DNA of 64,000 nucleotides from Escherichia coli (lineage in GTDB: Bacteria; Pseudomonadota; Gammaproteobacteria; Enterobacterales; Enterobacteriaceae), in the NCBI RefSeq assembly GCF_030013595.1, contig NZ_CP122768.1; one strand, written 5' to 3'. The notes under the pieces are model-generated. The model saw nothing but the letters and a program-made list of their open reading frames with translations. It searched no databases and was not told the origin of the DNA. Below are positions 1 through 58,746 of the stretch, piece after piece. Position 1 is the first letter of the stretch, and each line of letters opens with the position of its first letter. The position numbers and the translations under genes are program-made.

Positions 1-1
1 G

Positions 2-1613: not shown

Positions 1614-1639
1614 TGAAGTGACACACTGAATTTGGCCAC

Positions 1640-1841: not shown

Positions 1842-2261
<420 letters not shown>

Positions 2262-6451: not shown

Positions 6452-7423
6452 TTTATAGTCCTTACTTTATAAAATTCACAGGAAGAGGGAATTACGTAAA
6501 TACTGAGAGTACATAAACGCCGTACCACGGCATTAATAAACGAGGTAACCAGCAGTACAGACAACCTGATAAAACTGTTTGGTATTACCTCATTACAATG
6601 AGGTAATACTTCAGAATACAGTGAGGCTCTCTTAAACAGAGGACTAGTAAGAATTACAATGGCAAAAACACACCTCATAGAATTAAGTTTAAGGAAGTAC
6701 CATTCAATCACTTACAGGAAGTAATCTGATCTTCACAAAAGTCAGCTATCGAATAGCCACAGGCAACATCGCTATTAATATTGCCGTACCATTAAGTAAA
6801 AACAGGGACTCTGCAGAGAGAGCCTACAGATATTTAACCTCACAATAAGAAGATTATTTTATACAGAAAATATTATATTTACCCATACTTATAAACTGTA
6901 ATGGAGCTATAACATACGAACTAAAGACAATATACTCTAATAGTGTTCTGGTACGTAACTAGTGTTAAATACAAACCAGACATACATTCAGTGGATTAAC
7001 TATCTCAATATTACGCTATGAGCGTAGTAACATAATTTACACATAACTAAACCCCATACACCTCCACACTGTAGTATATGGGATAGACGCATTACGCACA
7101 TACAGAATACTCAGCATAACATAAAGAGGAGTGACATTACGATAAAAAGAGACAACATAACAGATAACATAACTCCCATTAATAATACTAATTAACCTAA
7201 ATTATTTATTGAATACGAAAACAATGAAGGCCCCACCTCACCTCAGACTAAAGCCGACAATATCCTGAGCAACAGGATATCCAATAGTAAATAGTGGTTA
7301 CACCAGTTATATTTACTGACTGACCTGTACCAGAGTTTTCTAATACAACGCTGACATGGTAAAGGCATTAGTCTCCTCCGCAAGTAGCAGAGGAGACTAT
7401 ATGTTAGTCAACGATTAAGTTGT

Positions 7424-8874: not shown

Positions 8875-9104
8875 TAATGGGTTAGTAAAGTAGCAGCAAC
8901 TCCCGCTATAATAGCGAAATAGCTGCTGTTCAGACCTAATGTTCTGAGAAATACAGAATATCTGTAGATCTGATGTTTAATAAACCGATAAGGTTAATTC
9001 AGTTCATACTGTGTTATTTACCACGAAATATCATTCATGTTTCTCATTCTTAACACCTCCTAAAATTATTTCACTAACACCTTCCCCCCGGTCTTTTTCC
9101 TTTC

Positions 9105-9332
9105 TCAGGAATCAGCCAGAACCATAGTGTAAATATTAACGGGCCCACGTAAATTTCCGGGGTTGCACACGTCAATCTGATTCTGACAGGCAATTGATAT
9201 CGCTGTTAATAATGATGTTGTAGTCATAGCCAGAGATGCTTTTTCATTGTGTTGAGTTTCAATTATTGCATTTCCAGTCATTGATGGTTGCGCATATACT
9301 GGATACGGAGTATCCGGTTTGATGTAAGACAT
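9105..9332 (-). pseudogene. truncated duplicate of the N-terminus of the DUF3987 gene
   Basis: 75-aa ORF ...GNAIIETQHNEKASLAMTTTSLLTAISIACQNQIDVCNPGNLRGPVNIYTMVLADS parallels ...RNAIIETQKNTQAPLAMVATSALTAISIACQNQIDVCRPGNLRGPVNLYSLILADS of ORF 8269..8874. Confidence 0.5.
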
Positions 9333-9437
9333 AAATATTTCCTTTTTTCGTAATAACTTTCGGTTATAGCAGCTATTTCCGCTACAATAGCAACAATAGC
9401 TGCTATACAGACTGGATATACTGAAAATACAGACAGT

Positions 9438-9686
9438 TCATCTGGTCTGTATCCAGCAGAGAAGGTCACTTAACAACCATCCGCAAGATTTCTTTCCGAT
9501 AGACTTACGTGGTGGAAATGTTCCCTCCCGTTCAAGTTTCCACGCTTGTGTACGAGAAATTGACGTGATCTCATATCGTTCCTTTTCACGTACCAGTCTG
9601 TCGCATTCAATCCCATAAGCTTTCAAAATGACCAGACGCTGTTCATCTGTTAATGGAAGCCACATACTACCCTCCTGATATATCAA
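9438..9686 (-). CDS. AlpA-family phage/island transcriptional regulator (HTH)
   Basis: C-terminal ...ITSISRTQAWKLEREGTFPPRKSIGKKSCGWLLSDLLCWI matches the AlpA pattern (helix-turn-helix followed by ...G...W...W); position next to the DUF3987 gene as in CP4-57-type islands. Confidence 0.6.
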   Translation of the reverse strand: MIYQEGSMWLPLTDEQRLVILKAYGIECDRLVREKERYEITSISRTQAWKLEREGTFPPRKSIGKKSCGWLLSDLLCWIQTR

Positions 9687-10355
9687 TACTTTTTATTTCC
9701 GGCATGAGCATGAAATGACTAAGTTTCCCGGATAAACAATGAGTGAAAGTCACTATCATTCATCCAGTCAACACCTTACAAATAAAATGTAATACTATGA
9801 TTTTTATAGGTCAAAATACTGAATTGAAATGTTAAAATGGCTTTTAATAGAAAAAATAAAGACATATAGAACCAAATAAAAACAAGCCGCGACCAATAAA
9901 AACAAAAATTAATATTAAAAATCCATTATGACGATTTTTGTTGACTAAAATTAGGTTGGGATATATAAATAAATCCATGTAAAATTCAAACAAAGCATGG
10001 AGGAGTCGCAGGAAGGTGAAATATTTCCATCTAATTTGTGATAATCATCACAAAAATAAGCTACAACAAGCGGAGGAAAAGACAATCTGTTGCTGAACAG
10101 ACAGAAGCAGGCTACGAATGATCGGAAAATGAAGCAAATACGCTTATACAGAAGACGCAGAGGTAACTGACGGAGACAATCACAATCAGGAGAAAATTAT
10201 CGTAAATAATGTATAAAATCTCAGGATATAAACAAATGTACACAAGCTATCCACGTAATCAGCGGCTGGCTCAGGATTAACGTTTCATTTCAGTGGACAA
10301 CATCGATTCTGTCTGACAGCGGACCAATATGTAGCAAGCAGAAACTTCTGACATC

Positions 10356-11954
10356 ATGGTAACTCGGACAATGCAACAAAAGTATCAGTATGATCGTGTT
10401 TTATCCGGCGAACTCCACCCATTCCCTGGCATATACGAGGCGGTTTCCGAACAAATCCTTTTGCTCATTTTTAAAGCACGTCAACTATATCAGGATCCAG
10501 AATATCGCCCCTGGTTTGAAGAACAGCACAGAGTACTCTCTGCATTACGTGCCAATACAGAGCTCCTGAGAATCTTTAGAGAACAAAGAAGCGCTGAAGA
10601 ACCAAAGCTTACTATTGAAGAGTCTACCTCCCCCCAACCCACTCCTTCTGCTCTTACAGATGCGCTTAATGTGATGTGCCATTTATACAATGGTTTTGAT
10701 GAAGGAAATATCAGTCTGAAAACTTGGGGGGCGATGCAAGAGGTACAGACAACATCAACCTTTATCAGCCCAGGACCGAGAACCTGGAAAACACCTGAAC
10801 TGGCAAAGTTTGTAGGAGATGATTTATTTAATATTCTGACTGAATGTAAGGCCTGGAGTTCACCAATTCCAGCAGAAACCCGACAGGGGTATTGCCATCA
10901 GGATCTGTCTGTTGCACACTCCTGCACCTCAGAGTTACTGGCACACCTGAATCAATATCATGAAATTGATGAATCAGCAATACTTGCCAGAGTTATTGGT
11001 ATAACAGTTAACGGATTCTACAAGAAAAATAATACAGACCTTCCAGAATGGCTATCCCCCTTTAAAGAGGAACATAAAATATTCAGAGATTGTCCGGAGC
11101 AAAATACCGGGGATGTAATCAGACGGAAAGAACAACTGTTGAAAACAGGACGTACAGAATTCGTGAATAATTTGTGTCGGGTCGCCAACTGGTATGAAAT
11201 TGAGTCAATATACGATGAATACGTCCGTCTTTATGCCAATGAAATCATTGACTGGTTCAACAAAACCATGAAGTATTTTAAACCAACAGATTTTATCCGA
11301 TATACATGGAAATTCGCAACAGTTACTCCGGATAAAGATACAGAAACCGGGCATACAACTGCATGGGAAAAGGATTATTGCCAGATAACCATACAACGTG
11401 ATGAACTTCTGAGGTTGATTCACACCAATACCCTTCAGGATGCAGTAATTTATCTTTGTCATTGTCTACAGAAGGAATACAAGAAATCATCCCAAAATGA
11501 GATAGAGTTCCCAGGAATAAAACCTCCGACATCAGAGAGTAAAATTAATATAACAAATAATATTAAATTTCATTCTCTCCTGGAGCTCAGTAAAGATAAT
11601 GAGAAGCGTCTGGAAACATTTCAAAAATGGTATGAAAAAAATAAAGTTTTGTTAGAAAGTCATAAACAAAAACGAACAGAGAAGATTGACGTTGCCGTAC
11701 GACTTGTAGGGCTGAAAGCCTATGATCTGCATGAAGGGATTCCGGATAGTCCAAAACGAAAAGTTAAAGATGGCATAAATGAAGACATCAAAGCCGATAC
11801 CAGTTTACGCCTGTCAAAGACAAATATAAGTGATACGTCGCTAAACCGTTATCGCCGCACTGTTAAGGAGATTATCAATAACGAAATTGACGCATTCCTG
11901 TTGGAACAGAAGAAAAAAATAAAAGATTTCCCTACAGTGAAGATAGAGATGTGA
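10356..11954 (+). CDS. hypothetical protein, 532 aa, AT-rich island cargo gene; no recognisable domain
   Basis: Long ATG-initiated ORF with no stops in a visibly AT-rich block, preceded by ~670 bp of AT-rich non-coding DNA; lysine-rich C-terminal third. Confidence 0.6.
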   Translation: MVTRTMQQKYQYDRVLSGELHPFPGIYEAVSEQILLLIFKARQLYQDPEYRPWFEEQHRVLSALRANTELLRIFREQRSAEEPKLTIEESTSPQPTPSALTDALNVMCHLYNGFDEGNISLKTWGAMQEVQTTSTFISPGPRTWKTPELAKFVGDDLFNILTECKAWSSPIPAETRQGYCHQDLSVAHSCTSELLAHLNQYHEIDESAILARVIGITVNGFYKKNNTDLPEWLSPFKEEHKIFRDCPEQNTGDVIRRKEQLLKTGRTEFVNNLCRVANWYEIESIYDEYVRLYANEIIDWFNKTMKYFKPTDFIRYTWKFATVTPDKDTETGHTTAWEKDYCQITIQRDELLRLIHTNTLQDAVIYLCHCLQKEYKKSSQNEIEFPGIKPPTSESKINITNNIKFHSLLELSKDNEKRLETFQKWYEKNKVLLESHKQKRTEKIDVAVRLVGLKAYDLHEGIPDSPKRKVKDGINEDIKADTSLRLSKTNISDTSLNRYRRTVKEIINNEIDAFLLEQKKKIKDFPTVKIEM

Positions 11955-12078
11955 TTCGACCTTTATGGGGAAAATGCCTGACCGGGCAGTAGATCACAGA
12001 TGGGATAACATCCCGGTTATCCCCTGTTTGTTCTGCTTCAGGTTGCCAGAGCTCCAGGAACACGAGGCAATCGGCAAA

Positions 12079-12675
12079 TTATGCGGCTTTTCCATTAACA
12101 GATTCGGCCACAAGAACAACACCGTGTTTGTTTCGATCAGGATGTTCACTCCAGATTTCTGATTCAGGAATACTTTCCCCATCATAGCAGATCCGATCAC
12201 CATCAAACGGATAATACCGTGCGGAATCTGTATCTAAGATAAACACCTTAAGATTCGTTGAACGACGCGCTATATGCTGCCAGAGGGCTTTACCTCCTTC
12301 ATATTGCTCGTTATCACTTAATAGTATAACGCCTGCTTTTGTGGCTATTGTTTCATAAACAAACGTAGCAAGGCTAACATCACGTACAGCACCATCGACA
12401 ACAATCCCTTCAATCTGAGCAACGTCCTGTTCTTCCCAGAATTTCCGGACAAACACCCCTTCAAGCTGTGAACGACGCTGAAGCTCCAGAGTGGCAACAA
12501 CCTTATGGCGAATATCACCATCAATAACAGAAGGTGCAGCTTCGATTACCGCAGCGAACGGAGTCTTTGGATCCCAGATGATCTGGTAAAGCACACCCTG
12601 AATAGTTACTCCATCCAGTATCGAAAAACGACGAGCTACAGTAGCAGGGGAGTAAGACATTGGAATGACAGCCAT
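12079..12675 (-). CDS. hypothetical protein, 198 aa, adjacent to the tRNA 3' end
   Basis: ATG-initiated ORF convergent with the 532-aa gene; no recognisable motif; no clear Shine-Dalgarno upstream. Confidence 0.5.
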   Translation of the reverse strand: MAVIPMSYSPATVARRFSILDGVTIQGVLYQIIWDPKTPFAAVIEAAPSVIDGDIRHKVVATLELQRRSQLEGVFVRKFWEEQDVAQIEGIVVDGAVRDVSLATFVYETIATKAGVILLSDNEQYEGGKALWQHIARRSTNLKVFILDTDSARYYPFDGDRICYDGESIPESEIWSEHPDRNKHGVVLVAESVNGKAA

Positions 12676-12985
12676 TTTATGGCCTAAAATTTGAAAACAT
12701 CAGTATCAATACTGACCTCATCAGTCTGAGCATATATTGATAAAGTTTTTATGTTTACACTCAATAAATACCTTACCAAACAACTAATAGCGATGTCTAC
12801 ATTGCCATTCGACATGCTTACAATTTTTGTCAACAAGAAAGTGAATTTATATCAACGGTAAGAAGTAAACACGAGGACACCAAAACCAAATGTACACACT
12901 TTTGTGCTTTGTGTCCCCTGTGTGTACCCAAATGACAAACTGCAAGAAAATCTAGGCACACACTTATCTAACTTATTGATTTAAA

Positions 12986-13061
12986 TGGTGCCGATAATAG
13001 GAGTCGAACCTACGACCTTCGCATTACGAATGCGCTGCTCTACCAACTGAGCTATATCGGC
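12986..13061 (-). tRNA. thrW: tRNA-Thr (anticodon CGU), thrW-like; island integration site at its 3' end
   Basis: Reverse complement reads GCCGATATAGCTCAGTTGGTAGAGCAGCGCATTCGTAATGCGAAGGTCGTAGGTTCGACTCCTATTATCGGCACCA: cloverleaf-compatible, anticodon loop ttCGTaa, CCA end. Confidence 0.93.
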
Positions 13062-13175
13062 CCTGAAAGGACATGTTCACGAACGTGAATCACGGTGGAC
13101 AAGGTTAAAACTAACCGGGCGATGCGTCAATGGCCTTGTGAATCAAATGGCTACTTTTGCATCACCCGGTTTTAT

Positions 13176-15750: not shown

Positions 15751-15831
15751 AATCTCAGGTTAAAAACTTTCCTGTTTTCAACGGGACTCTCCCGCTGAAT
15801 ATTCGCGCGTTAATTAAAATCAGGAATGAAA

Positions 15832-16887
15832 ATGAAAAAGAGCACTCTGGCATTAGTGGTGATGGGCATTGTGGCATCTGCATCCGTACAGGCCGCAGAA
15901 ATATATAACAAAGACGGTAATAAACTGGATGTCTATGGCAAAGTTAAAGCCATGCATTATATGAGTGATAACGACAGTAAAGATGGCGACCAGAGTTATA
16001 TCCGTTTTGGTTTTAAAGGCGAAACACAAATTAACGATCAACTGACGGGTTATGGTCGTTGGGAAGCAGAGTTTGCCGGTAATAAAGCGGAGAGTGATAC
16101 TGCACAGCAAAAAACGCGTCTCGCTTTTGCCGGGTTGAAATATAAAGATTTGGGTTCTTTCGATTATGGTCGTAACCTGGGCGCGCTGTATGACGTGGAA
16201 GCCTGGACCGATATGTTCCCGGAATTTGGTGGCGACTCCTCGGCGCAGACCGACAACTTTATGACCAAACGCGCCAGCGGTCTGGCCACTTACCGTAACA
16301 CTGACTTCTTCGGCGTTATCGATGGCCTGAACTTAACCCTGCAATATCAAGGGAAAAACGAAAACCGCGACGTTAAAAAGCAAAACGGCGATGGCTTCGG
16401 TACGTCATTGACATATGACTTTGGTGGCAGCGATTTCGCCATCAGTGGGGCCTATACCAACTCCGATCGCACTAACGAGCAGAACCTGCAAAGCCGTGGC
16501 ACAGGCAAGCGTGCAGAAGCATGGGCAACAGGTCTGAAATACGATGCCAATAATATTTATCTGGCAACTTTCTATTCTGAAACACGCAAAATGACGCCAA
16601 TAACTGGCGGCTTTGCCAATAAGACACAGAACTTTGAAGCGGTCGCCCAATACCAGTTTGACTTTGGTCTGCGTCCGTCGCTGGGTTATGTCTTATCGAA
16701 AGGGAAAGATATTGAAGGCATCGGTGATGAAGATCTGGTCAACTATATCGATGTTGGTGCTACGTATTATTTCAACAAAAATATGTCGGCATTTGTTGAT
16801 TATAAAATAAACCAACTGGATAGCGATAATAAGCTGAACATCAATAATGATGATATTGTCGCGGTTGGCATGACCTATCAGTTTTAA
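15832..16887 (+). CDS. phoE: phosphate-starvation outer membrane porin PhoE
   Basis: [37 protein letters not shown]... with C-terminal ...VAVGMTYQF porin signature; second ATG of the ORF chosen. Confidence 0.93.
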
Positions 16888-30235: not shown

Positions 30236-30252
30236 TGGCAAAAGGCGTGCCA
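30236..30252 (-). promoter_or_regulatory. sigma-54 promoter core (-24/-12) for the lafB operon
   Basis: Minus strand reads TGGCACGCCTTTTGCCA = TGGCAC-N5-TTGC, placing the predicted start site ~15-20 nt before the lafB ATG (30205). Confidence 0.65.
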
Positions 30253-30387
30253 ATATTTTTTATGTGAATAATCAATAGATTGAAAAACAGGCGGAAATGG
30301 TGTTTCCGGTCTGGCGGAAAAAAGCCTGCCGCTGAAAGCACAACACCGCCTGCAGGCGGTGTTGAGACTGATGACAAACGCAACACT

Positions 30388-31843: not shown

Positions 31844-32737
31844 ATGCAAAGCACTATCAGGAAACATTTATCCCTTGCTAAGGTAAACTCAACTATGAGT
31901 ATTATTATCAACAACTGGCGGATGGACCCGTCGCTTAATGCCTTAATACATTGCGAAACGGGTGAAACACGTCGTCTCGGCGAATACCATTTTATTTTGC
32001 TGGAAACATTAGCAAAAAATGCCGATGTGGTTTTATCGCGATCTTATTTATGTGCCGAAGTATGGAAGAACCGTATTGTCGGCGGAAACAGCCTACCGAC
32101 GGCGATCCATGCATTGCGCGTTGCTATCGATGATGATGGCAAACAACAGAACATTATTAAAACCATCCCGAAAAAAGGTTACCTGTGCAATAAAGAGTAT
32201 GTGTCTTTGCCGGAGTCATCGCCTGCAGAAGCGCTGATTATTACCGACCAGATACAGGATACAGCCCCAGAAGAGATATCTTCGACAACACCGCCTGTGC
32301 CTGTCAGAAAAAAACATAAAGGACTGATGGGGTTAGCCTTGACCGCGGCTGTTATATTTATTGGCTCGACCGTGGGGTATTCACACTTGAAAAATACACC
32401 TGACGCCCCGCAGCTGGTAAAAGAGTCAATTAACAGTCCAAGAATAAAAATATTTCATCTTAGTTCTGGAAAAGAAAATAATTCTGTACCGTTACTGTCA
32501 CAAACCCTCGCACCAGGAAAAGACAAACTCGATAATTTATTGTCAGCGCATAATATGACAATGACAACCTATTATAAATATGTTCGTAACCGACTGGAGA
32601 GTGATATTGTTCTGCGCAACCAGTGCAACGGTAGCTGGCAATTAACTTTTAATGTGGATAGCTGGCAGAATAGCGATATTAATAGCGCGATGTATCAGAA
32701 TTTAGAGAAGTTGTTAAATACTGTGCAGAAGTGCTGA
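31844..32737 (+). CDS. lafZ: membrane-anchored ToxR/CadC-like transcriptional regulator (winged-helix N-terminus, one TM segment)
   Basis: N-terminal winged-helix-like region (...RLGEYHFILLETLAKNADVVLSRSYLCAEVWKNRIVGGNSLPTAIHALRVAIDDD...), then hydrophobic GLMGLALTAAVIFIGSTVGY segment; divergent from lafA. Confidence 0.7.
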   Translation: MQSTIRKHLSLAKVNSTMSIIINNWRMDPSLNALIHCETGETRRLGEYHFILLETLAKNADVVLSRSYLCAEVWKNRIVGGNSLPTAIHALRVAIDDDGKQQNIIKTIPKKGYLCNKEYVSLPESSPAEALIITDQIQDTAPEEISSTTPPVPVRKKHKGLMGLALTAAVIFIGSTVGYSHLKNTPDAPQLVKESINSPRIKIFHLSSGKENNSVPLLSQTLAPGKDKLDNLLSAHNMTMTTYYKYVRNRLESDIVLRNQCNGSWQLTFNVDSWQNSDINSAMYQNLEKLLNTVQKC

Positions 32738-43056: not shown

Positions 43057-43072
43057 AGCAATCGCTGTGCCA
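43057..43072 (-). promoter_or_regulatory. sigma-54 promoter core (-24/-12) for the lfgB rod/hook operon
   Basis: Minus strand reads TGGCACAGCGATTGCT = TGGCAC-N5-TTGC, ~35 nt upstream of the lfgB start. Confidence 0.7.
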
Positions 43073-43101
43073 TTTTTTAAGTGACTGATGAGAAAGGGTT
43101 T

Positions 43102-43839
43102 ATGAGTTTTCAATTTTGCAGGCGGAAGTTTTATTTCCTCCTGGCGCTGACCTTACCGGGCTACGCCGCCGTCCACCCCGTGCAACACAGCGCGCGGGAA
43201 CAAGTCAACGCCCAGGTACTGAATGCCGCGAGCCAGGAAATTGAATCGCTGGCGCAACAGCGGCGCTGGCATGACTATCGCTACACCTTTAAGGTCTATA
43301 TTCCCTCGCAGATTGCGACCGCCGCCCCCTGTGCGACTACACCCGGCGTCACGCTCACTTCGCCTGCGGAAATCACCCTCAACCGGATGAACTTCACCGT
43401 CAGTTGCCCGCAAAGCTGGCAGATGAACGTGGCGGTGCGCCCGGATGTTCTGGTGCCGGTGGTAATGGCGAAGTCACTGGTTGCCCGCGACACGCCGCTC
43501 ACGGCAAATGATGTGGAGTTGAAGCCCTACAACGTCAGCGCCCAGCGCCGCAATGTGTTGATGGATCCCGATGACGCGATTGGTTTCAGCAGTAAACACG
43601 CGCTGCAACCGGGCAGGCCCATCACCAAAGAAGAGCTGGTTTCGCCAGTGCTGGTCGAACGCGATCAGCCGGTGATGATTGTTTACCAGAGCGCGGGGAT
43701 CACCGCCTCGATGCCCGGCGTGGCGCTGAAAAATGGTCGCAAAGGCGAGATGGTGAAAGTGCGTAACGCCAGCAGCCAGCGGGTCATCAGCGCGATGGTG
43801 GCGGAAAGCGGCGTGGTAACAACGGTAAGCGCGGAGTAA
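43102..43839 (+). CDS. lfgA: FlgA-like P-ring assembly chaperone
   Basis: ORF trimmed to MSFQFCRRKFYFLLALTLPGYAAV signal peptide; divergent from lfgB. Confidence 0.75.
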   Translation: MSFQFCRRKFYFLLALTLPGYAAVHPVQHSAREQVNAQVLNAASQEIESLAQQRRWHDYRYTFKVYIPSQIATAAPCATTPGVTLTSPAEITLNRMNFTVSCPQSWQMNVAVRPDVLVPVVMAKSLVARDTPLTANDVELKPYNVSAQRRNVLMDPDDAIGFSSKHALQPGRPITKEELVSPVLVERDQPVMIVYQSAGITASMPGVALKNGRKGEMVKVRNASSQRVISAMVAESGVVTTVSAE

Positions 43840-44026: not shown

Positions 44027-45451
44027 ATGTCTGAATTTGAATTGCTCGTGAAAGATCTTCTTTTAAAATCAGAAGAAGACGAGAAAAAGCGACAAGAAAA
44101 AGATCGAGAATTAATTTCAAAGGTTCTTGAAATCTATGATCAAAAATATGTTGCAGAACTCCTACGAAAAGTAGGAAAAAATGAATGGAGCAGAGAAACA
44201 CTTAACCGTTGGATAAATGGTAAGTGTAACCCTAAACAATTAACTTCTGCTGAGGAAACTTTACTTCGAAAGATGCTTCCAGAACCTCCCGAACATCATC
44301 CTAACTATACATTTCGTTTTATTGATTTATTCGCAGGGATTGGTGGTATTCGTAAAGGCTTCGAAAATATTGGTGGGCAGTGTGTTTTTACTAGCGAATG
44401 GAATAAAGAAGCGGTAAGAACCTACAAAGCTAATTGGTTTAATGATGAACTAAATCATAAATTTAATCTTGATATACGAGAAGTCACTTTAAGTGATAGA
44501 GATGATGTTTCCGAAATGGAAGCCTATAATCATATAGACAAAAATATTCCAGATCATGATGTCCTTCTGGCCGGTTTTCCATGTCAGCCCTTTAGTCTGG
44601 CTGGGGTAAGCAAGAAAAATTCTCTGGGGCGTGCACATGGTTTTGAATGTGAGGCACAAGGAACACTATTTTTTGATGTCGCTCGAATTATTAAATCAAA
44701 AAAACCAGCTATTTTTGTGCTTGAGAATGTGAAGAACCTTAAAAGTCATGATAAAGGTAAGACTTTTAAAGTCATCATGGAAACACTCAATGAATTAGGG
44801 TATGAAGTCGCCGATGCTGGTGTGACTGGCTCAGATGATCCTAAAATTATAGATGGAAAACATTTTTTACCCCAACATCGTGAGCGTATAGTGTTGGTAG
44901 GATTTCGTAGGGATCTAAATATTCACAAGGATTTCACGTTACGAAATATTAACCGCTTTTACCCTCAAAACAGGCCAACATTTGGTGAATTATTAGATCA
45001 TGATGTTGACGACAAATATATTTTGACTCCAAGGTTATGGGAATATCTTTACAATTATGCAAAAAAACATGCAGCAAAAGGAAATGGATTTGGTTTTGGT
45101 TTAGTGGATCCTAAAAATCCAGATAGTATCGCACGAACGCTGTCTGCTCGTTACCATAAAGATGGCTCTGAAATACTGATCGATCGTGGCTGGGATAAGG
45201 CTGTCGGTGAAATCGATTTTAGTAATCCAGCGAATCAAGAGAATCGACCAAGAAGACTGACACCTCATGAATGTGCCAGGTTAATGGGTTTTGAAAAACC
45301 AGGGGGAAGACCTTTTAGAATACCTGTATCAGATACTCAAGCTTATAGACAATTTGGGAACTCAGTTGTTGTGCCAGTATTTGAAGCTGTAGCAAGATTA
45401 CTAGAACCGTACATACAAAAGGCTGTCAGCATGCAAGTTATTAACGATTAA
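44027..45451 (+). CDS. DNA (cytosine-5)-methyltransferase, Dcm/M.EcoRII-like (predicted CCWGG specificity)
   Basis: 474 aa with motifs [15 protein letters not shown] (I), [10 protein letters not shown] (IV), ENVKNL (VI), [10 protein letters not shown] (X); collinear with E. coli Dcm as recalled; ACGGGGG RBS; AT-rich compared with flanking flagellar genes. Confidence 0.85.
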
Positions 45452-45474
45452 TAATAATTAACTTTCACTATTGT

Positions 45475-45498
45475 GAGGCCTTTTTTATTAAAGGCCTC
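45475..45498. terminator. bidirectional hairpin between the convergent methyltransferase and endonuclease genes
   Basis: gaggccttttttattaaaggcctc perfect stem-loop in the 87-bp convergent intergenic region. Confidence 0.6.
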
Positions 45499-45538
45499 TA
45501 AATATATAATCATAAGTTATTATAAGTATACTTTTATA

Positions 45539-46744
45539 TTATATAAAATCTTCATACAGCGTTATTAACTGTGTGATAAAACCCTCTAACGTTAATAATC
45601 CATCCCTGATTTCCTCCGGATATTTTTTATGAAGAGGGGAAGGTACAACCAAGGTGACACCTTCAGCTCTCATTTCGTTAAATTGAGCAACTGAGACACC
45701 CTCTTGTAAGGTAAACAAATATATTTTGTTGATTTTATTTGCTTCATTGAGTGCCTGACGCCACCGATCCTTACATGTTGTTTTTACAGCAAGCATACGG
45801 AGTTTTTCTCTTGGAAAGTGATCATCATGGTAAGCTGCCGCTGATGGAAAAAGAAAATCGGGTTTCTTTTTTCCTTCAGTAATACATTGAGTAGCAAAAT
45901 GATGCAGTCCATGCTCAATAAAAATTTGCTCAAGATGTAGCTCCAGTGATTTCCCGGCTCGAGATTTTCTTCGATTACTAACAGAGTTAGCCATAGCTAT
46001 AAAATCATCTACAGAACCAAACCCTTGACGGATGATGTCCAGTACGTGAATTTCTTCAACCATTAGAAAGAGATCATATTCAATACGGCGGCGTTCTAAA
46101 AGTTGGTCATCTGGACTGGTTACGCCTGTTGGGTAATAACCCGCAGCATATTGAATAATCTCTAAGCCAGAAGGAAAGCTATGTTTCCAGCTTTCCGGAA
46201 TAACATATTCCTTTTGAGAGATTTTTGGCCTTGATGCGAGTACACCAAGTATTTCACTGGCAGGCCCAAACATTAAAGTTCCAGGAATGATCTCCCCAAT
46301 AGCTGATTCCAGTACATCCTCTTCTTCTGGGCTAACACAAACCCATACATCAACACTTTTGCTGTCTCTCCCTGGCTCATGTTCAAACGCAAGCACAGAC
46401 AAAGCACCTGTATTTTCCGGATCCTGTAGGGGACTGCCAGCCCCCCACCGAGTGATGCGTTTTTCATTTCTTGTTTGCCCGAAATACTTATTATTGTAGT
46501 AAATAGCGCGAACCTCACTGTCTACACATTCATGAGAGGAATAAGTTGCGCGCAATAAAACCGAAGGATTTTTTTCTGACGTATGATCTATAGATGGGAA
46601 AAGTTCAGCGACGATACCAGAAGGGATATATACCCCCACTTGATGCCCTCCTGTTGCACCAGTGTCGTTTGCTGAAAGACGTTTAATATAGAGATAGTTG
46701 TTACCACCGACCTTATCAAGCAGCCAATCTTGTAATCCTGACAT
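45539..46744 (-). CDS. type II restriction endonuclease, EcoRII-like
   Basis: 401 aa; N-terminal ...YIKRLSANDTGATGGHQVGVYIPSGIV... and overall collinearity with R.EcoRII as recalled; convergent partner of a Dcm-like methylase. Confidence 0.65.
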   Translation of the reverse strand: MSGLQDWLLDKVGGNNYLYIKRLSANDTGATGGHQVGVYIPSGIVAELFPSIDHTSEKNPSVLLRATYSSHECVDSEVRAIYYNNKYFGQTRNEKRITRWGAGSPLQDPENTGALSVLAFEHEPGRDSKSVDVWVCVSPEEEDVLESAIGEIIPGTLMFGPASEILGVLASRPKISQKEYVIPESWKHSFPSGLEIIQYAAGYYPTGVTSPDDQLLERRRIEYDLFLMVEEIHVLDIIRQGFGSVDDFIAMANSVSNRRKSRAGKSLELHLEQIFIEHGLHHFATQCITEGKKKPDFLFPSAAAYHDDHFPREKLRMLAVKTTCKDRWRQALNEANKINKIYLFTLQEGVSVAQFNEMRAEGVTLVVPSPLHKKYPEEIRDGLLTLEGFITQLITLYEDFI

Positions 46745-47651: not shown

Positions 47652-47778
47652 CGACCATTCCTTCCCCCATCGCGGAAACGGATTTTCCGCCTGATTCACA
47701 ATCCTTTGTTTTTGATTATAAAAAATCACGGCACGCTTATTGCACATTCCGCAAAGTAATAAAGACTGGAAGCCACCT

Positions 47779-48609
47779 ATGAGTTTTATTGAATGTTACG
47801 AACCGGAATACGTGCGCAATTTTATGACGCAATATCCCGATTCGCCTTTGTACATCCGCAAGGTGTGGAAAAACGAGATTCGCCTGAGCCTGATGCTGAC
47901 AGAGCCAGAAAGTTGCGAAGCGGTGCTCAACGATGCCAGGGCCTTTGATTTACAGCTCACCTACCGCCCGGCGGAAGAAAATGCCGCAGAGCTTTCCGCG
48001 CGCGATGCGATAGTAAACCAGGTCATTTTGAGTACCCTCACGCTCCCCGATTTAACCCCAGAGCTTTCACTATATGCCATCGGGATTTTACTCTCCCGCG
48101 CCAGCAAAATGCCGGGCAGAGACGGAGATATTCTTGCCCGTTTGACGACGCTGCCGCAGGCGCTGGCCGATCATGCGAAAAAAGGCACGCTACAGGCACA
48201 GTTCGCCCAACTTCCGCCCGTGCCACAGCTGGCGCGTCACCTGGCCACGCTACTCGGGAGTTTTACGTTTGACTGGTCGATTTTGCCGGAAAGCCCGCGC
48301 AAAACTTCGCTGCCGTTGCAGATGCCTTTGCTGGCGCTACATGACGCCAACAGCGAAGCCCTGGTGCAACAGCAGCTTCAGGCTCAGTGGCAAACCACCT
48401 GGCAACAGCATTTTGCCACCGCGCCCTGGATGATGCGTAACTGGCTGATTTACCGCGTTTACCATGAGGTGATTGGACAGGCAGACGGAGCAGATTATTG
48501 CCCGCTGGTGTGCGATTTTTATCTTATCCGCACGTTAATCAGTTTTATGGACGCTGGATGGTTCTCCGCTGCGACAGGAGGATATTTTCGCCCTTTTTGC
48601 GGTGTTTGA
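47779..48609 (+). CDS. hypothetical protein in the Flag-2 variable region
   Basis: ORF 47740..48609 begins at a TTG; first ATG with GGAAG RBS is 47779 (MSFIECYEPEYVRNF...); no recognisable domain. Confidence 0.55.
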   Translation: MSFIECYEPEYVRNFMTQYPDSPLYIRKVWKNEIRLSLMLTEPESCEAVLNDARAFDLQLTYRPAEENAAELSARDAIVNQVILSTLTLPDLTPELSLYAIGILLSRASKMPGRDGDILARLTTLPQALADHAKKGTLQAQFAQLPPVPQLARHLATLLGSFTFDWSILPESPRKTSLPLQMPLLALHDANSEALVQQQLQAQWQTTWQQHFATAPWMMRNWLIYRVYHEVIGQADGADYCPLVCDFYLIRTLISFMDAGWFSAATGGYFRPFCGV

Positions 48610-48729
48610 ACGCTGGCGAGAGAGTGAAAATGCGCTGTTTATTCGCCAGCAAATTCAGTCGTTATGTGCGGCAGAGCCGCTGCTTTCAGCATTTTCGCTG
48701 CTGACGTGAGTCGCTCTGTGCGCGCTTTT

Positions 48730-48845
48730 CCCCTCACCCTAACCCTCTCCCCAAAGGGGCGAGGGAACCGATCGAGCACGGTGTTAAAATCGGCGCTGGT
48801 TTTCTCCCCTCTCCCTGTGGGAGAGGGTCGGGGTGAGGGCATCAG
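48730..48845. repeat. GC-rich composite palindromic intergenic repeat, copy C
   Basis: ccctcaccctaaccctctccccaaaggggcgagggaacc ... cccctctccctgtgggagagggtcggggtgaggg, same orientation as copy B. Confidence 0.7.
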
Positions 48846-48888
48846 CACGCACATTCATCACATTCACCCCTTAACTCACCCAGACACC

Positions 48889-51360
48889 ATGCCAACACAA
48901 ACCATCATCAAAACACTCGCCACCCACCGCGAAAAACCGTTTGTCAGCGTCGTCACGCCAACCTGGAACCGTGGCGCATTCCTGCCGTACCTGCTTTATA
49001 TGTACCGCTATCAGGATTACCCGGCAGACCGCCGCGAACTCATCATCCTCGACGACTCGCCGCAAAGCCATCAACACATCATCGACCGCCTGACCAATGG
49101 CACACCGGAAGCCTTTAACATCCGCTATATTCATCACCCGGAAAAACTGCCACTGGGCAAAAAACGCAACATGCTCAACGAACTGGCGAGCGGCGAATAC
49201 ATCCTCTGCATGGACGATGACGACTACTACCCGGCAGATAAAATCTCCTGGACCATCGCCATGATGCAAAAACATAGGGCGCTCATCTCCGGCTCCGACC
49301 AGATCCCCATCTGGTACAGCCACATCAACCGCATTTTCAAAAGCCGCAGCTTTGGCCCGCATAACATCCTCAACGGCACCTTTTGCTATCACCGTAACTA
49401 CCTGAAAAAGCACCGTTACGACGACGATAGCAATTTAGGCGAAGAGAAAAGTTTCACCAACAATTTCAGCGTTAACCCGCTACAACTGCCCGGCGAGCGC
49501 ACGATTCTGTGTATCTCGCACAGCCACAACACCTTTGATAAAGACTTTATTCTCGGGGCCAGCACGCCTGTAAACGCGGCGCTTACGGATATCGTCCGCG
49601 ATCCGCTGCTCCGCAATGCTTATCTGAGTCTGCATAACGCCACTCATCACCAGGCGATCAACCATCAGGCGATCGATCAGATCGTTCTGCTGAATCTGGA
49701 TAAACGCCCGGATCGCTTACAACAGATCCGTGAAGAACTGGCATTGCTGCATATTCCACCTGAGAAGATCACCCGCCTTGCCGCCAGTGAAGATCAAAAC
49801 GGTCAACGGGGTCGCCGCCAGTCGCACTTGCAGGCGCTGCGCCTGGCGCAACAGCACGGCTGGCAAAACTATCTGCTGCTGGAAGATGACGCGGTTATTC
49901 TCAAGCAGGAGAAACATATTCAGGTGCTGAACACGCTGCTGGCGAGCCTGGCGAAAATTCCCTGGCAGGTGATGATCCTTGGCGGCGAAATTTCGCAAGG
50001 AACTATGCTAAAAAGTTTGCCGGGGCTGGTGCACGCGCGGGACTGCCGCAAAGTGTGCGCTTATCTGGTGAACAGCCGCTACTACCCGCAACTGGCGCAG
50101 CAGATGAGCAACGATGAGCACTCGCTGGAAGCCTGCTGGCAGCCGCTGCTACACGCCGACAAATGGCTGGCCTGTTACCCGAGCCTTTGTTACCAGCGAC
50201 CGGGCTTTAGCGATATCGAGAAAAAAGTCACCGACAACATTAGTCACTATTTCAATAAGTTACACGTAACCACCAAGCCATCCACGTTACCCATCGCCGA
50301 CACCATCGGCTTTTTTATGGAAACCTCATTCCACTACGCGCTGTATCGCCCAATCATCACCGCTCTACAGGCGCAGGGGGAGAGCTGCACGCTGGTGATC
50401 AACGACCGCGTGTTTAAACCGTTTCTGGATGAAATGCTGGAGACGCTAAAAAGCATCGACGACCCACAGCTTAAAGGTATGCGCTTGTCTGAGATGCAGG
50501 CACACGGCCAGCGGATGAAATGCCTGGTCAGCCCCTACCACACGCCCGCGCTCAATGGCCTGGCAGCGGTGAACGTTCGCGCCATGTATGGCTTAGCCAA
50601 AGAAACGTGGAACCACGCCGACTGGAACCGTTTTTATCAGCGCATTTTGTGTTACAGCCACTACAGCCAGCAGGCGCTGGCGCATTTCGGTAGCGCAAAA
50701 GTGGTCGGCAACCCACGCTTCGACGCCTGGCATAACGGCACGTTCGACCGCACTCTGCCGGAAAATATCCAACCCGATTCCTGTAAACCTACGGTGCTCT
50801 ACGCCCCTACGTTTGGCGCACTAAGCTCCCTGCCCCACTGGGCAGAAAAATTAGGCCGCTTAAGTGGCAATGTGAATCTGATTTGCAAACTGCACCACGG
50901 CACCTGCTCGCGCCCGGAAGAAACTGCATCGCTGGCACTGGCGCGCAGGCATTTAAAACGGCGCACCGACTCCGCCCGCCACACGCTGGCGCTGCTGGCA
51001 AAGGCCGATTACGTGCTGACCGATAACAGCGGCTTTATTTTCGATGCTATTCACGTTGATAAGCGGGTGATCCTGCTCGACTTTCCGGGCATGAGTGAAT
51101 TGCTCGACGGCGAGAAAAGCTACTCCACGCCGGAGAGCGCCGATCAGCAAATCCGCGAAATATTGCCGGTGGCTCATGATATGGCAGAGTTGCGTTACTT
51201 GTTGTCAGAGGCGTTTGACTGGGGGGCGGTGCAGACACGGCTTAAGGAGATTCGTCATCACTATTGCGATGCGTTTATGGATGGCAAGGCGGGAGAACGG
51301 GCGGCGATGGTGATTGTTGAGGCGCTGGCGGACAAGGAACCGTCAGGGATATGTCGATAA
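48889..51360 (+). CDS. three-domain glycosyltransferase: N-terminal GT2-like, central GT25-like, C-terminal CDP-glycerol glycerophosphotransferase (TagF)-like
   Basis: 823 aa from ATG 48889; VVTPTWNR...CMDDDD (GT-A/DXD); IVLLNLDKRPDRLQQI...LLLEDDAVIL (GT25-like); VLYAPTFG and YVLTDNSGFIFDAIHV (TagF-family signatures). Confidence 0.7.
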   Translation: MPTQTIIKTLATHREKPFVSVVTPTWNRGAFLPYLLYMYRYQDYPADRRELIILDDSPQSHQHIIDRLTNGTPEAFNIRYIHHPEKLPLGKKRNMLNELASGEYILCMDDDDYYPADKISWTIAMMQKHRALISGSDQIPIWYSHINRIFKSRSFGPHNILNGTFCYHRNYLKKHRYDDDSNLGEEKSFTNNFSVNPLQLPGERTILCISHSHNTFDKDFILGASTPVNAALTDIVRDPLLRNAYLSLHNATHHQAINHQAIDQIVLLNLDKRPDRLQQIREELALLHIPPEKITRLAASEDQNGQRGRRQSHLQALRLAQQHGWQNYLLLEDDAVILKQEKHIQVLNTLLASLAKIPWQVMILGGEISQGTMLKSLPGLVHARDCRKVCAYLVNSRYYPQLAQQMSNDEHSLEACWQPLLHADKWLACYPSLCYQRPGFSDIEKKVTDNISHYFNKLHVTTKPSTLPIADTIGFFMETSFHYALYRPIITALQAQGESCTLVINDRVFKPFLDEMLETLKSIDDPQLKGMRLSEMQAHGQRMKCLVSPYHTPALNGLAAVNVRAMYGLAKETWNHADWNRFYQRILCYSHYSQQALAHFGSAKVVGNPRFDAWHNGTFDRTLPENIQPDSCKPTVLYAPTFGALSSLPHWAEKLGRLSGNVNLICKLHHGTCSRPEETASLALARRHLKRRTDSARHTLALLAKADYVLTDNSGFIFDAIHVDKRVILLDFPGMSELLDGEKSYSTPESADQQIREILPVAHDMAELRYLLSEAFDWGAVQTRLKEIRHHYCDAFMDGKAGERAAMVIVEALADKEPSGICR

Positions 51361-57387: not shown

Positions 57388-58374
57388 TCAGGAGAAAACT
57401 TCAATACCGTGCTTGCGCATGGAGGCCAGTCGATAGCGCAGTGCGCGCGGGGTAATGCCTAACAGGTCGGCAATTTTGCTGCGGTTGCCCTGATATTTAC
57501 GCATCAGGTCGGCGATATATTGATACTGGGCGCTACGTCCGGCCTGGCCTAAATCGCTGGTTTCCGCAACAGATACGGAGGGCTGAATGGGCCATTGCAG
57601 TTCGCTGTGGTCGGCAATGTCATTTTCCGGCAGGCCTAACGCGTCCGGGTAAATCACGCCGTCGCGATTTAAAATCATTCCCCGCTGAATGGCGTTTTCC
57701 AGCTGGCGCACATTACCCGGCCAGCGGTAATTCAGCAGCGCACGGCGGGTAGATTCCGAAAGGGTGATATTTTTCACCAGCACCGTGGAGTATTTTTTAA
57801 TAAATGACTCTGCCAGCGGAATAATATCGTTCAGACGTTCACGCAGCGGCGGCATGGTAATAGGAATAACCACCAGACGATAATAGAGATCTTCACGAAA
57901 ACGCCCTTCGGCGACTTCCTGCTCAAGGTTTTTATTGGTGCAGGCAATCAGGCGAAAATTGAGTTTAATTTGTCGGTTGCTGCCTAATCGCTCAACCTGT
58001 TGTTCCTGCAATACGCGTAATATTTTGGCCTGTAATGCCAGCGGCATATCGCCAATTTCATCGAGCAATAAGGTGCCGTTATTTGCCAGTTCCATTTTGC
58101 CTGGCACGCTGGCAATTGCGCCGGTAAATGCGCCTTTGTCGTAGCCAAATAATGTAGCTTCCAGCATGTTTTCCGGGATCGCCGCGCAGTTCACGCCGAC
58201 ATAGGGTGCGCTTTCATTTTCACCAAAGGCTACGGTGTGAATATATTTTGCCACGCACTCTTTGCCCGCGCCGGTTTCGCCCTGAATGAGCACCGGCACG
58301 TTAAATGCGGCGACACGCTTTGCCAGAGTAAAAGCGTTAATGCTGGAAGCGGCAGTTGCAATAAGTTCAGACAT
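57388..58374 (-). CDS. lafK: sigma-54-dependent transcriptional activator without an N-terminal receiver domain (AAA+ plus C-terminal HTH only)
   Basis: 328 aa; Walker A GETGAGKE ~30 residues from the N-terminus, GAFTGA loop, C-terminal HTH ...SKIADLLGITPRALRYRL. Confidence 0.85.
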   Translation of the reverse strand: MSELIATAASSINAFTLAKRVAAFNVPVLIQGETGAGKECVAKYIHTVAFGENESAPYVGVNCAAIPENMLEATLFGYDKGAFTGAIASVPGKMELANNGTLLLDEIGDMPLALQAKILRVLQEQQVERLGSNRQIKLNFRLIACTNKNLEQEVAEGRFREDLYYRLVVIPITMPPLRERLNDIIPLAESFIKKYSTVLVKNITLSESTRRALLNYRWPGNVRQLENAIQRGMILNRDGVIYPDALGLPENDIADHSELQWPIQPSVSVAETSDLGQAGRSAQYQYIADLMRKYQGNRSKIADLLGITPRALRYRLASMRKHGIEVFS

Positions 58375-58526
58375 AGGGTGAACGATATAAGTAGCGACAA
58401 TAATCAGGATGTTCTGAAGCGTATCACCGGCGGGATTAACAAGTTCGAATTAAACGATAATAAAAATATTATTTGATGGTAAACAATGAGTTAGATATTA
58501 ATACTGTTAATTTGGACATCTGTGAT

Positions 58527-58567
58527 GCCCCCTCACCCTAACCCTCTCCCCGGATGGGGCGAGGGGA
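58527..58567. repeat. partial copy (one arm) of the GC-rich palindromic repeat, copy D
   Basis: ccctcaccctaaccctctccccggatggggcgaggggaca in the lafK-lfiM divergent intergenic region. Confidence 0.65.
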
Positions 58568-58746
58568 CAGACCGCAGACTGATTGGCGAAAATCACTCCC
58601 ATTAAGCAATTAATCGATTAATTATTTTTTCATCCTATTAATAATTTGCCCCTTTCACTCCCCCTCTATTTAATACCTCACCTTGTGTCACTGCCGGATT
58701 TGCGTGCACAAAATCGCCCATACCATTACAGCAGAGAAAGTAAGCC

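Follow-up and report, generated by a model that had tools for sequence, protein, structure and literature searches.

Among sigma-54 enhancer-binding proteins (EBPs), PspF is the textbook example of an activator free of a cis-acting control domain, and FleQ and FlrA are flagellar sigma-54 activators with an N-terminal domain that is not phosphorylated. LafK, the activator found in lateral flagellar loci, has been grouped with PspF and HrpR/HrpS as EBPs without a signal-recognition domain (Francke et al. 2011, PMC3162934). The domain-less class of EBPs, LafK included, is already known, and the observation of such a protein in Escherichia coli is correct but ordinary. A sequence-only reading of the locus had described a sigma-54 activator that starts directly with its AAA+ domain, ends with a helix-turn-helix (HTH) and leaves no room for a receiver or sensory domain, implying control by expression level or by a partner protein rather than by phosphorylation. 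Here the gene, its upstream spacer, its relatives and its candidate target promoters are compared with these described systems. The window is the whole 64-kb stretch of E. coli DNA that was analysed.

Domain organisation of LafK in the Flag-2 locus

The gene at positions 57388..58374, on the minus strand, encodes from an ATG start a 328 aa sigma-54 EBP in which no N-terminal regulatory domain is present, as judged from the open reading frame and the Pfam matches. Within Flag-2, the lateral-type flagellar locus of E. coli, it is flanked by lfiMNPQR-lfhBA on one side and lfiEFGHIJ on the other. Its identification as lafK is supported by this position together with the 50% full-length identity of its product to the equivalently placed LafK of Vibrio parahaemolyticus. 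The RefSeq product name in a 99.9% identical genome is 'sigma-54 interaction domain-containing protein'.

The AAA+ sigma-54 interaction domain covers residues 6-172 (57859..58359, minus strand; PF00158 Sigma54_activat, 215 bits against a cut-off of 20.2, E 7e-64). It is followed by the AAA+ lid domain in residues 178-246, which includes the WPGNVRQLEN sensor II region (57637..57843, minus strand; PF25601 AAA_lid_14, 71 bits, E 5.8e-20), and by a Fis-type DNA-binding HTH in residues 284-317 (57424..57525, minus strand; PF02954 HTH_8, E 8e-9). In an alignment of EBPs, Walker A is GETGAGKE in residues 32-39 (58258-58281, minus strand) and the intact GAFTGA is in residues 81-86 (58117-58134, minus strand), while Walker B within the AAA+ domain reads LLLDE. 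An AAA+ domain from the very start with Walker A some 30 residues in, and an HTH at the C-terminus, is thus what the sequence-only reading had described. The GETGAGKE, LLLDE and WPGNVR motifs, and four residues of GAFTGA, map to invariant alignment columns (G32, G35, G37, K38, E39, G81, A82, T84, A86, D105 and E106, and W218-R223), and F83 and G85 of GAFTGA fall in nearly invariant ones. All catalytic motifs are thereby intact in both the Pfam and the alignment data, and LafK has what marks a bacterial EBP, namely an AAA+ domain with Walker A, Walker B and lid/sensor II, and a GAFTGA loop. No match to the receiver family PF00072 was obtained in Pfam, and no histidine kinase gene is annotated in the Flag-2 locus.

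The lafK start codon and upstream spacer

Between lafK and the divergent lfiM lies a non-coding spacer of 372 bp (58375..58746), which holds an in-frame TAA and a strain-variable palindromic repeat cassette and has a GC content of 41% compared with 51% for the whole window. The TAA is found at 58450-58452, 26 codons 5′ of the lafK ATG, and the 25 sense codons between them contain no ATG, GTG or TTG. On the minus strand, 58375-58746 is interrupted by 7-9 stops in each frame and is nowhere open for more than 36 codons. In tblastn searches the best match of FlrC-type receiver domains anywhere in the 64-kb window had E 0.26, with none in the spacer, and the N-domain of V. parahaemolyticus LafK, the N-domains of two other LafK proteins and MotY_L matched nothing at E<=1, whether in the window or the Hafnia locus. 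The claim that a receiver or sensory domain would have no room here is borne out by the Pfam result, the in-frame TAA and the closed spacer.

Neither a Shine-Dalgarno sequence in the spacer nor, with simple scans upstream of lafK, a sigma-70 promoter or a terminator was found, and no sigma-54 element or enhancer palindrome was detected upstream of lafK or of lfiM. With no recognisable promoter and no Shine-Dalgarno, lafK expression may be very low.

In an alignment with three further E. coli alleles (93-96% identity), conservation extends over the ATG, the first 30 codons and some 120 nt of 5′ flank with the TAA; for these alleles the RefSeq CDS is the matching 987 bp or 981 bp. The four E. 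coli alleles share both the TAA and the start. Three long database proteins with REC or ACT domains (P0055, P0061 and P0078; ~70% identity) were considered as evidence of an N-domain and rejected as metagenome assembly chimeras. All three come from contigs of 2.6-5.2 kb and turn into LafK sequence at a conserved FREDL(Y/F) motif, and the N-terminal halves of two of them exceed the NtrC (721 bits) and TyrR (728 bits) equivalog cut-offs. Two others, P0009 and P0011, were rejected as N-terminal extensions, being C-terminal fusions to FliE and FliG sequence.

Comparison with LafK of Vibrio and with other flagellar activators

Vibrio LafK was found through the lateral-type gene context of a relative (P0142), and the member names of its cluster include V. 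parahaemolyticus, V. harveyi and V. alginolyticus. Relatives of another short protein (P0267) carry names from Ectothiorhodospira, Thioalkalivibrio and other Gammaproteobacteria, not Vibrio. The alignment with V. parahaemolyticus LafK runs end to end, E. coli residues 1-328 against residues 123-438, with 50% identity and E 9e-110. At 443-444 aa the Vibrio protein is 116 aa longer, and it has a receiver-like N-domain that the E. coli protein does not. This N-domain scores 22 bits against Response_reg, under the Pfam cut-off, and has neither the phospho-acceptor Asp nor the conserved Thr and Lys, and phosphorylation control is therefore unlikely even in the prototype. A pseudo-receiver of about 120 aa is carried by LafK of both Vibrio and Shewanella and is absent from that of E. 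coli. By sequence comparison E. coli LafK is a real truncation relative to Vibrio LafK. It belongs with the LafK orthologous group in gene position and in full-length AAA+/HTH similarity and departs from it in the pseudo-receiver; since neither the pseudo-receiver nor an upstream remnant of it is present, enterobacterial LafK is a truncated sub-type of the group.

The gene order agrees with this assignment. In the window, in Hafnia, in Thaumasiovibrio and in a V. parahaemolyticus-group locus (L013), lafK is located between divergent lateral operons, fliMNPQR-flhBA and fliEFGHIJ. The order in the V. parahaemolyticus-group locus is motY_L-lafK-fliEFGHI, opposite fliMNPQR-flhB, and that in Hafnia, fliM<->lafK-fliEFGH, is identical to E. 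coli.

An alignment with FleQ was also run. The AAA+ domain of FleQ and FlrA is clearly homologous to that of LafK (E 1e-64), but LafK is without the FleQ-type N-domain. The FleQ AAA+ sequence used was 100% identical to PDB 5EXP. FleQ residues R144, R185, N186, E330 and R334, which we take from the structural literature on FleQ to be its c-di-GMP contacts, are not kept in LafK, where R144 is absent, R185 is replaced by K43, N186 by Y44, E330 by S and R334 by K. FleQ-type c-di-GMP binding by LafK was rejected since the contact residues are not conserved.

Conservation of the short form

Between E. coli alleles the dN/dS of lafK is 0.036-0.138, and the gene is therefore under purifying selection. 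LafK is also short, at 324-348 aa, in Citrobacter, Leminorella, Hafnia, Budvicia, Pantoea, Regiella and others, and many enterobacterial genera retain this form at 60-82% identity. The Flag-2 region is present in 1409 of 5426 complete E. coli genomes. In the near-identical genome all Flag-2 structural genes are annotated intact, and a frameshifted lysine-N-methylase is the sole pseudogene annotated in the locus.

Sigma-54 promoter modules in the Flag-2 locus

Three sigma-54 promoters in the Flag-2 locus each have a GGAAA-N6-TTCCGCC palindrome. The lfgB promoter module (43057..43138, minus strand) consists of the palindrome GGAAATAAAACTTCCGCCTG at 43119-43138 and then an exact sigma-54 -24/-12 element, TGGCACAGCGATTGCT, at 43057-43072, with the sequence TGGCAC-N5-TTGCT. 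The modules before the lafB (fliD_L) operon and the variable-region operon have sigma-54 sites with one mismatch. The former (30237..30308, minus strand) has the palindrome GGAAACACCATTTCCGCCTG at 30288-30307 and the sigma-54 element TGGCACGCCTTTTGCC at 30237-30252, and its operon includes lafS, encoding sigma-28. The latter (47674..47744, plus strand) has the palindrome GGAAACGGATTTTCCGCCTG at 47674-47693 and the sigma-54 element CGGCACGCTTATTGCA at 47729-47744, and its operon encodes a lysine-N-methylase and a glycosyltransferase.

Matches to the sigma-54 consensus alone numbered 6 in the 64-kb window against 3.6 expected, which is not above chance, and the evidence for these promoters is taken from the positions of the sites and the common palindrome, not from the match count. 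For GGAAA-N4-7-TTCCG there were 6 matches in the window against 0.53 expected by chance. The exact 9-mer TTCCGCCTG has just 3 copies in the window, each followed after 36 or 47 nt by the GGCAC core of one of the three sigma-54 matches with 0-1 mismatches that stand just before flagellar operons. When palindrome and promoter were scanned together in one genome per species, across 100,044 species, 21 matches were obtained, 15 of which are directly upstream of lateral-flagellar genes. In Vibrio rotiferianus and Photobacterium galatheae, with a FliD just 34-35% identical to that of E. coli, the module is found before fliD_L. An lfgB-type module precedes flgB_L in Pseudocitrobacter, Escherichia sp. 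and Enterobacteriaceae bacterium B14, and the variable-region operon module is conserved in Escherichia, Citrobacter and Pseudocitrobacter. These positions make the GGAAA-N6-TTCCGCC palindrome a likely candidate for the LafK enhancer, and no prior description of it was found in the literature available.

Discussion

The reading preferred here, to which we assign a probability of roughly 0.65, is that lafK is a functional gene of Flag-2 encoding a two-module EBP from which the pseudo-receiver has been removed, which binds the palindrome and which is controlled through its expression. The protein would descend from a Vibrio-type LafK by loss of the N-terminal pseudo-receiver of about 120 aa, the neighbouring motY_L being gone as well. 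Its HTH is predicted to bind GGAAA-N6-TTCCGCC, whose centre is some 50-60 nt 5′ of the -24 GG, and the AAA+ domains would assemble into a ring that opens sigma-54 promoters by ATP hydrolysis and the GAFTGA loop. The predicted targets are the lfgB rod/hook operon, the lafB-...-lafS (sigma-28) operon and the flagellin-modification operon. The lfiM operon has neither sigma-54 element nor palindrome before it, and LafK does not therefore govern the whole locus as its only master regulator; the lafK-lfiEFGHIJ operon is likewise without such a module and is therefore not auto-activated.

With no receiver and no room for one, two-component phosphorylation of LafK is excluded on structural grounds, and on this point the sequence-only reading holds. 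Its other proposition, control by expression level or by a partner, is what such a domain anatomy would ordinarily suggest. Since there is no inhibitory or sensory N-domain, newly made LafK should be active at once, and control would then lie in the amount of LafK, set by transcription and translation of the lafK-lfiEFGHIJ operon. A domain-less LafK is likely, though not guaranteed, to be constitutive; in NtrC and similar positively controlled EBPs removal of the receiver inactivates the protein and does not activate it. No candidate partner gene for LafK was found in the Flag-2 locus, and transcription of lafK is the more likely level of control than a partner protein. A more detailed scenario is put forward tentatively, as somewhat short of an even chance: a single ancestral event would have taken out both motY_L and the 5′ third of lafK, the part encoding the pseudo-receiver, leaving enterobacterial LafK as a constitutive deletion derivative, with the input moved to lafK transcription, LafZ as candidate regulator and the palindrome serving as enhancer from Vibrionaceae to Escherichia. 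LafZ is Flag-2-specific, with a ToxR-like architecture in which the OmpR-type winged helix is N-terminal.

The absence of a domain could be an annotation artefact if the start were mis-called and a receiver or sensory domain were encoded upstream, in frame or in frameshifted or split form, as might be thought from the 372-bp gap before an ATG lacking a Shine-Dalgarno and from the few database proteins of 462-521 aa (67-71% identity) with REC or ACT domains. Those long proteins are however assembly chimeras, the TAA lies upstream with no start codon in between, stops recur in every spacer frame, no tblastn match was obtained for receiver domains, the Vibrio LafK N-domain or MotY_L, and the start is identical in the four E. 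coli alleles, Citrobacter and Leminorella. The mis-called start is already refuted by sequence, and we leave it next to no probability. It is improbable, but less so, that lafK, in a locus prone to degradation in enterobacteria, is no more than a shortened Vibrio-type gene that has lost its function. The 122 N-terminal residues missing relative to Vibrio LafK, the lack of a Shine-Dalgarno and of a recognisable promoter, the presence of the region in only 1409 of 5426 complete E. coli genomes, the frequent gene loss in Flag-2 loci (PMC6993521) and the statement, in the discussion section of PMC4481668, that Flag-2 is non-functional in some E. coli and Yersinia strains would all fit such decay. 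Against it stand the dN/dS of 0.04-0.14, the intact catalytic motifs, the retention of the short form at 60-82% identity in many enterobacterial genera, the conserved target promoter modules and structural genes that are annotated intact, with the frameshifted lysine-N-methylase as the only pseudogene.

Of the alternatives in which LafK is functional, the one given most room, though still judged unlikely, is that it is held by an anti-activator, as in PspF-PspA, HrpS-HrpV and FleQ-FleN, or by a small ligand, for instance c-di-GMP on the AAA+ domain, until a signal releases it. PspF and HrpR/S, listed with LafK (PMC3162934), are precedents among domain-less EBPs, and LafV, a degenerate-EAL protein of V. 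parahaemolyticus, acts as a repressor of surface-regulon genes when LafK is present (PMC9303241). In E. coli, however, no lafV-like gene follows lafU, the next gene being dinB, and no gene of PspA, HrpV or FleN type is annotated in the locus, although a partner could be encoded elsewhere in the genome; moreover, LafK retains none of the five c-di-GMP contacts of FleQ and falls under both NCBIfam PspF cut-offs. That short LafK works only in mixed rings with a second EBP, in the manner of HrpR/HrpS, has very little in its favour apart from two tandem EBP genes upstream of fliE in one distant metagenomic locus (L005), as lafK is the sole EBP gene in the E. coli Flag-2 locus and in the Hafnia stretch examined.

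If the preferred reading, a functional and expression-controlled LafK, is followed, the question of how a locus present in about a quarter of complete E. coli genomes is switched on concerns the lafK promoter, not LafK itself. The operons that carry the conserved palindrome/sigma-54 module form a candidate LafK regulon open to direct testing. For annotation, the gene should be named lafK in place of the generic RefSeq product name, and the JGI name 'response regulator FlrC' for lafK orthologues is wrong because there is no receiver. The general understanding of sigma-54 activators is unchanged by these findings.

With E. coli PspF (325 aa) LafK has a common architecture, the AAA+ domain beginning within the first 10 residues, a C-terminal HTH and no regulatory domain. 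The likeness is architectural, as the regulon differs, LafK is outside the PspF family (234.5 bits for TIGR02974, cut-off 443.55; 202 for NF008622, cut-off 529) and linkage to the psp operon is not shared, no pspA-like or other psp gene being annotated in the Flag-2 locus. PspF itself is under negative control by PspA, which binds at its surface Trp56 region. HrpR and HrpS, the T3SS activators of Pseudomonas syringae, are domain-less like LafK and also control a type III export-based machine, but they are a paralogous pair antagonised by HrpV, whereas Flag-2 has one EBP gene and no HrpV-like gene annotated. The AAA+ domain of V. cholerae FlrC is the closest solved structure (E 3e-74), and flrC/fleR, which encodes a two-component activator in polar flagellar loci, is, as lafK, immediately 5′ of fliEFGHI; LafK lacks both the phosphorylatable receiver of FlrC and the cognate kinase gene that lies upstream of flrC. 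REC-less proteins of 325-345 aa occur alongside REC-bearing ones of 440-456 aa in other Gammaproteobacteria, 60-67% identical to the same REC-less query, and the short REC-less forms checked there adjoin fliE. V. parahaemolyticus LafK is, as in E. coli, encoded between the fliMNPQR-flhBA and fliEFGHIJ lateral operons, and its HTH recognition region LGVSTRALRYKLA is near-identical to the E. coli LGITPRALRYRLA. It differs in some 122 extra N-terminal residues, which form the receiver-like domain that E. coli LafK lacks, and in having motY_L directly 5′ with a 4-nt overlap, a neighbour that E. coli lafK does not have. The long form of Vibrio and the short enterobacterial form of LafK constitute a natural experiment on the role of the pseudo-receiver.

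LafK domains and start codon

The lafK gene (57388-58374, minus strand), encoding a sigma-54 enhancer-binding protein (EBP), is an open reading frame of 328 codons with an ATG start. The Pfam domains are a sigma-54 interaction AAA+ domain (residues 6-172; 215 bits, E 7e-64), an AAA+ lid (residues 178-246) and a Fis-type HTH_8 (residues 284-317). GETGAGKE, the Walker A motif, spans residues 32-39 and the GAFTGA loop contacting sigma-54 spans residues 81-86; both lie in columns that are invariant, or nearly so, in an alignment of 18 sequences. The sequence-only reading, which had put the AAA+ domain near the N-terminus, Walker A about 30 residues in and the HTH at the end, was accurate. Among E. 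coli alleles dN/dS was 0.036-0.138, a purifying signal indicating that the short lafK is not decaying.

An N-terminal domain encoded upstream in frame, and hence a mis-called start, had been named as what could overturn this reading. In frame, the 25 sense codons between the ATG and an upstream TAA at 58450-58452 include no ATG, GTG or TTG, and every minus-strand frame of the 372-bp spacer between lafK and the divergent lfiM (58375-58746) holds 7-9 stops. Three FlrC-type receiver domains searched by tblastn against the window gave a best E of 0.26, and the N-domains of Vibrio parahaemolyticus LafK and two other LafK proteins, together with MotY_L, had no match at E≤1 in either the window or the Hafnia locus. 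Nor did other strains reveal an in-frame extension: in three further E. coli alleles of 93-96% identity the ATG and first 30 codons are identical, and about 120 nt 5′ of lafK, TAA included, are conserved bar a few substitutions. As the TAA, the closed frames, the lack of tblastn remnants and the conserved 5′ end agree, a mis-called start is rejected.

At its middle the spacer carries a repeat cassette that varies by strain and is swapped between conserved flanks. This strain has a G/C-rich imperfect palindrome (...CCCCTCGCCCCATCCGGGGAGAGGGTTAGGGTGAGGGGG...) at 58520-58600, replaced at the same site in other E. coli alleles by canonical REP/BIME-type repeats (GCCGGATGCGGCGTAAACGCCTTATCCGGCC). 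Within the 40 nt that precede the ATG (58375-58414) nothing matched the Shine-Dalgarno AGGAGG at more than 2 of 6 positions, and simple scans of the spacer found no sigma-70 consensus promoter.

Comparison with Vibrio LafK

Through the closest receiver-bearing relatives a Thaumasiovibrio protein was found in a lateral-type locus, with fliMNPQR divergent from motY_L-EBP-fliEFGH, and a search seeded with it yielded 431-465-aa proteins in Vibrio, Photobacterium, Enterovibrio, Grimontia and Shewanella. One cluster (that of P0474; 90% identity, 1333 sequences) includes the V. parahaemolyticus, V. harveyi and V. alginolyticus proteins, all 443-444 aa, with the gene context motY_L-lafK-fliEFGHI opposite fliMNPQR-flhB. 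It also holds 340-aa MotY-family members, which may be a clustering artefact since the motY_L and lafK genes overlap by 4 nt.

In the alignment with V. parahaemolyticus LafK that the sequence-only reading had proposed, E. coli residues 1-328 match residues 123-438 at 50% identity, and the E. coli protein is therefore the Vibrio form lacking residues 1-122. The Vibrio N-domain covers the entire Response_reg profile at 22 bits, which is under the Pfam cut-off. Aligned with bona fide receivers, it has Ser for the phospho-acceptor Asp, E-P-N as the acidic pocket, Val for the conserved Thr and Arg for the conserved Lys, and with these key residues replaced it is a pseudo-receiver. In Enterobacterales the N-domain is truly gone, and so is motY_L. 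On these alignments, enterobacterial LafK is a real truncation of a pseudo-receiver-bearing Vibrio-type LafK, which is a modest new point.

Database relatives in Citrobacter, Leminorella, Hafnia, Budvicia, Pantoea, Pragia, Regiella and others have lengths of 324-348 aa, and Hafnia lafK has the same fliM<->lafK-fliEFGH layout. The few longer LafK-like proteins with REC or ACT N-termini were artefacts and not true N-domain forms. Three of them (P0055, P0061 and P0078), on metagenome contigs of 2.6-5.2 kb, switch to LafK sequence at a conserved FREDL(Y/F) motif, and the N-terminal halves of P0061 and P0078 pass NtrC and TyrR equivalog cut-offs, marking them as chimeras. The partners in the three are E. 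coli NtrC, E. coli TyrR and one receiver-bearing EBP, joined at FREDL(Y/F)-RL; such assembly chimeras are a caution for surveys of EBP domain architecture. Two more proteins, P0009 and P0011, are C-terminal fusions and not N-terminal extensions.

The Flag-2 locus

The window comes from the E. coli chromosome. With 1.8 kb around lafK as query, 1409 of 5426 complete E. coli genomes gave a match, and identity to a pig isolate was 99.9%. The RefSeq annotation of the 99.9% identical genome contains a complete Flag-2 (lateral-type) locus in the order lafU ... lafA, lafZ, lafW, flgL ... flgB, flgA, an inserted restriction-modification pair, flgMN, a variable region with methylase and glycosyltransferase, fliJIHGFE, lafK and then the divergent fliMNPQR-flhBA. 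The published position of lafK, lfhAB-lfiRQPNM-lafK-lfiEFGHIJ (PMC6993521), is the same. The inserted pair, annotated between lfgA and lfgM (44027-46744), consists of a DNA cytosine methyltransferase of 474 aa on the plus strand and, on the minus strand, a 401-aa type II restriction endonuclease. A lambdoid prophage (holin, antiterminator Q, integrase) makes up the left end of the window (1-13100), integrated beside a tRNA-Thr gene, and phoE (about 15830-16880) is annotated with an internal stop in the near-identical genome.

A candidate LafK enhancer

Consensus matches to sigma-54 promoters in the whole window were not above chance in number, and those counted here are the sites with 0-1 mismatch just upstream of flagellar operons (n=3). 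They precede lfgB (43057-43072, minus strand, exact match; module 43057-43138), the lafB/fliD_L operon to which the sigma-28 gene lafS belongs (30237-30252, minus strand, one mismatch; module 30237-30308) and the methylase/glycosyltransferase operon (47729-47744, plus strand, one mismatch; module 47674-47744). Each has GGAAA-N6-TTCCGCCTG upstream, followed by an A-tract, and the three occurrences of the 9-mer TTCCGCCTG in the 64-kb window are all at these sites; the palindrome pattern matched 6 times in the window against 0.53 expected. GGAAA-N6-TTCCGCC sits 36-47 nt upstream of the sigma-54 GGCAC, and from palindrome centre to GG the distance is 49.5 nt at two of the sites and 60 nt at the third, which differ by roughly one turn of the helix.

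Scanning one genome per species for palindrome plus promoter (100,044 species) gave 21 matches in 19 DNA stretches, where a rough estimate expects a few by chance. Fifteen were directly upstream of lateral flagellar genes, in Escherichia, Citrobacter, Pseudocitrobacter, the more distant Enterobacteriaceae bacterium B14 and, ahead of fliD_L, Vibrio rotiferianus and Photobacterium galatheae, whose FliD is only 34-35% identical to that of E. coli (module loci in other genomes: L014-L017, L021, L022, L024-L026, L028-L031). The other six were in unrelated taxa and had no Flag-2 protein encoded downstream. The palindrome, of which no description was found in the searchable literature, is a candidate LafK enhancer predicted from sequence. 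Long and short LafK would also have a common DNA specificity, which fits their near-identical HTH. A second modest new point is the conserved candidate enhancer that goes with the sigma-54 promoters in the lateral flagellar regulon.

The variable-region operon (47740-51360) encodes a lysine-N-methylase, whose gene carries an annotated frameshift in the near-identical RefSeq genome, and a glycosyltransferase of 898 aa. The operon has its own LafK-type sigma-54 promoter module, and flagellin modification thus appears co-regulated with the rod/hook and filament-cap operons.

Control of LafK

Control by expression level or by a partner, as the sequence-only reading had it, was a reasonable, textbook inference; expression level is now the most likely, and the partner is without support in the locus. 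LafK may be controlled by a partner or ligand, but no lafV, pspA, hrpV or fleN-like gene is annotated in the Flag-2 locus and the c-di-GMP contact residues of FleQ are not conserved in LafK. Since LafK has no cis-acting regulatory domain, its control would most likely be through the amount made. Neither the palindrome nor a sigma-54 element was found upstream of lafK or lfiM, so that lafK is not auto-activated. The Flag-2-specific regulator LafZ (280 aa, about 31890-32732, plus strand) has an N-terminal winged helix of the OmpR/PhoB type (residues 25-97), a ToxR/CadC-like layout, and is a speculative candidate for an upstream regulator of lafK transcription.

Relation to known systems

Among solved structures, the V. 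cholerae FlrC AAA+ domain is the closest to LafK (E 3e-74). Receiver-less EBPs of 325-350 aa encoded directly 5′ of fliEFGHI also occur in other, distant Gammaproteobacteria, where at 60-67% identity they are interleaved with FlrC-type proteins, which bear a receiver and have a kinase gene upstream. Receiver loss in this flagellar EBP lineage thus seems recurrent. A distant metagenomic flagellar locus (L005, 3312-5011) has two tandem EBP genes directly upstream of fliE (230 aa and 336 aa, 4-nt overlap), recalling a paired HrpR/HrpS-like system or a split gene. Membership of LafK in the PspF family is rejected by the NCBIfam cut-offs, and the likeness is therefore of architecture only. Francke et al. 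(2011) placed LafK, PspF and HrpR/S together among EBPs 'lacking a separate signal recognition domain' (PMC3162934), which may reflect the pseudo-receiver nature of the Vibrio N-domain. Both the gene, lafK, and its locus were already known, as was the class of domain-less sigma-54 activators, in which LafK is already included.
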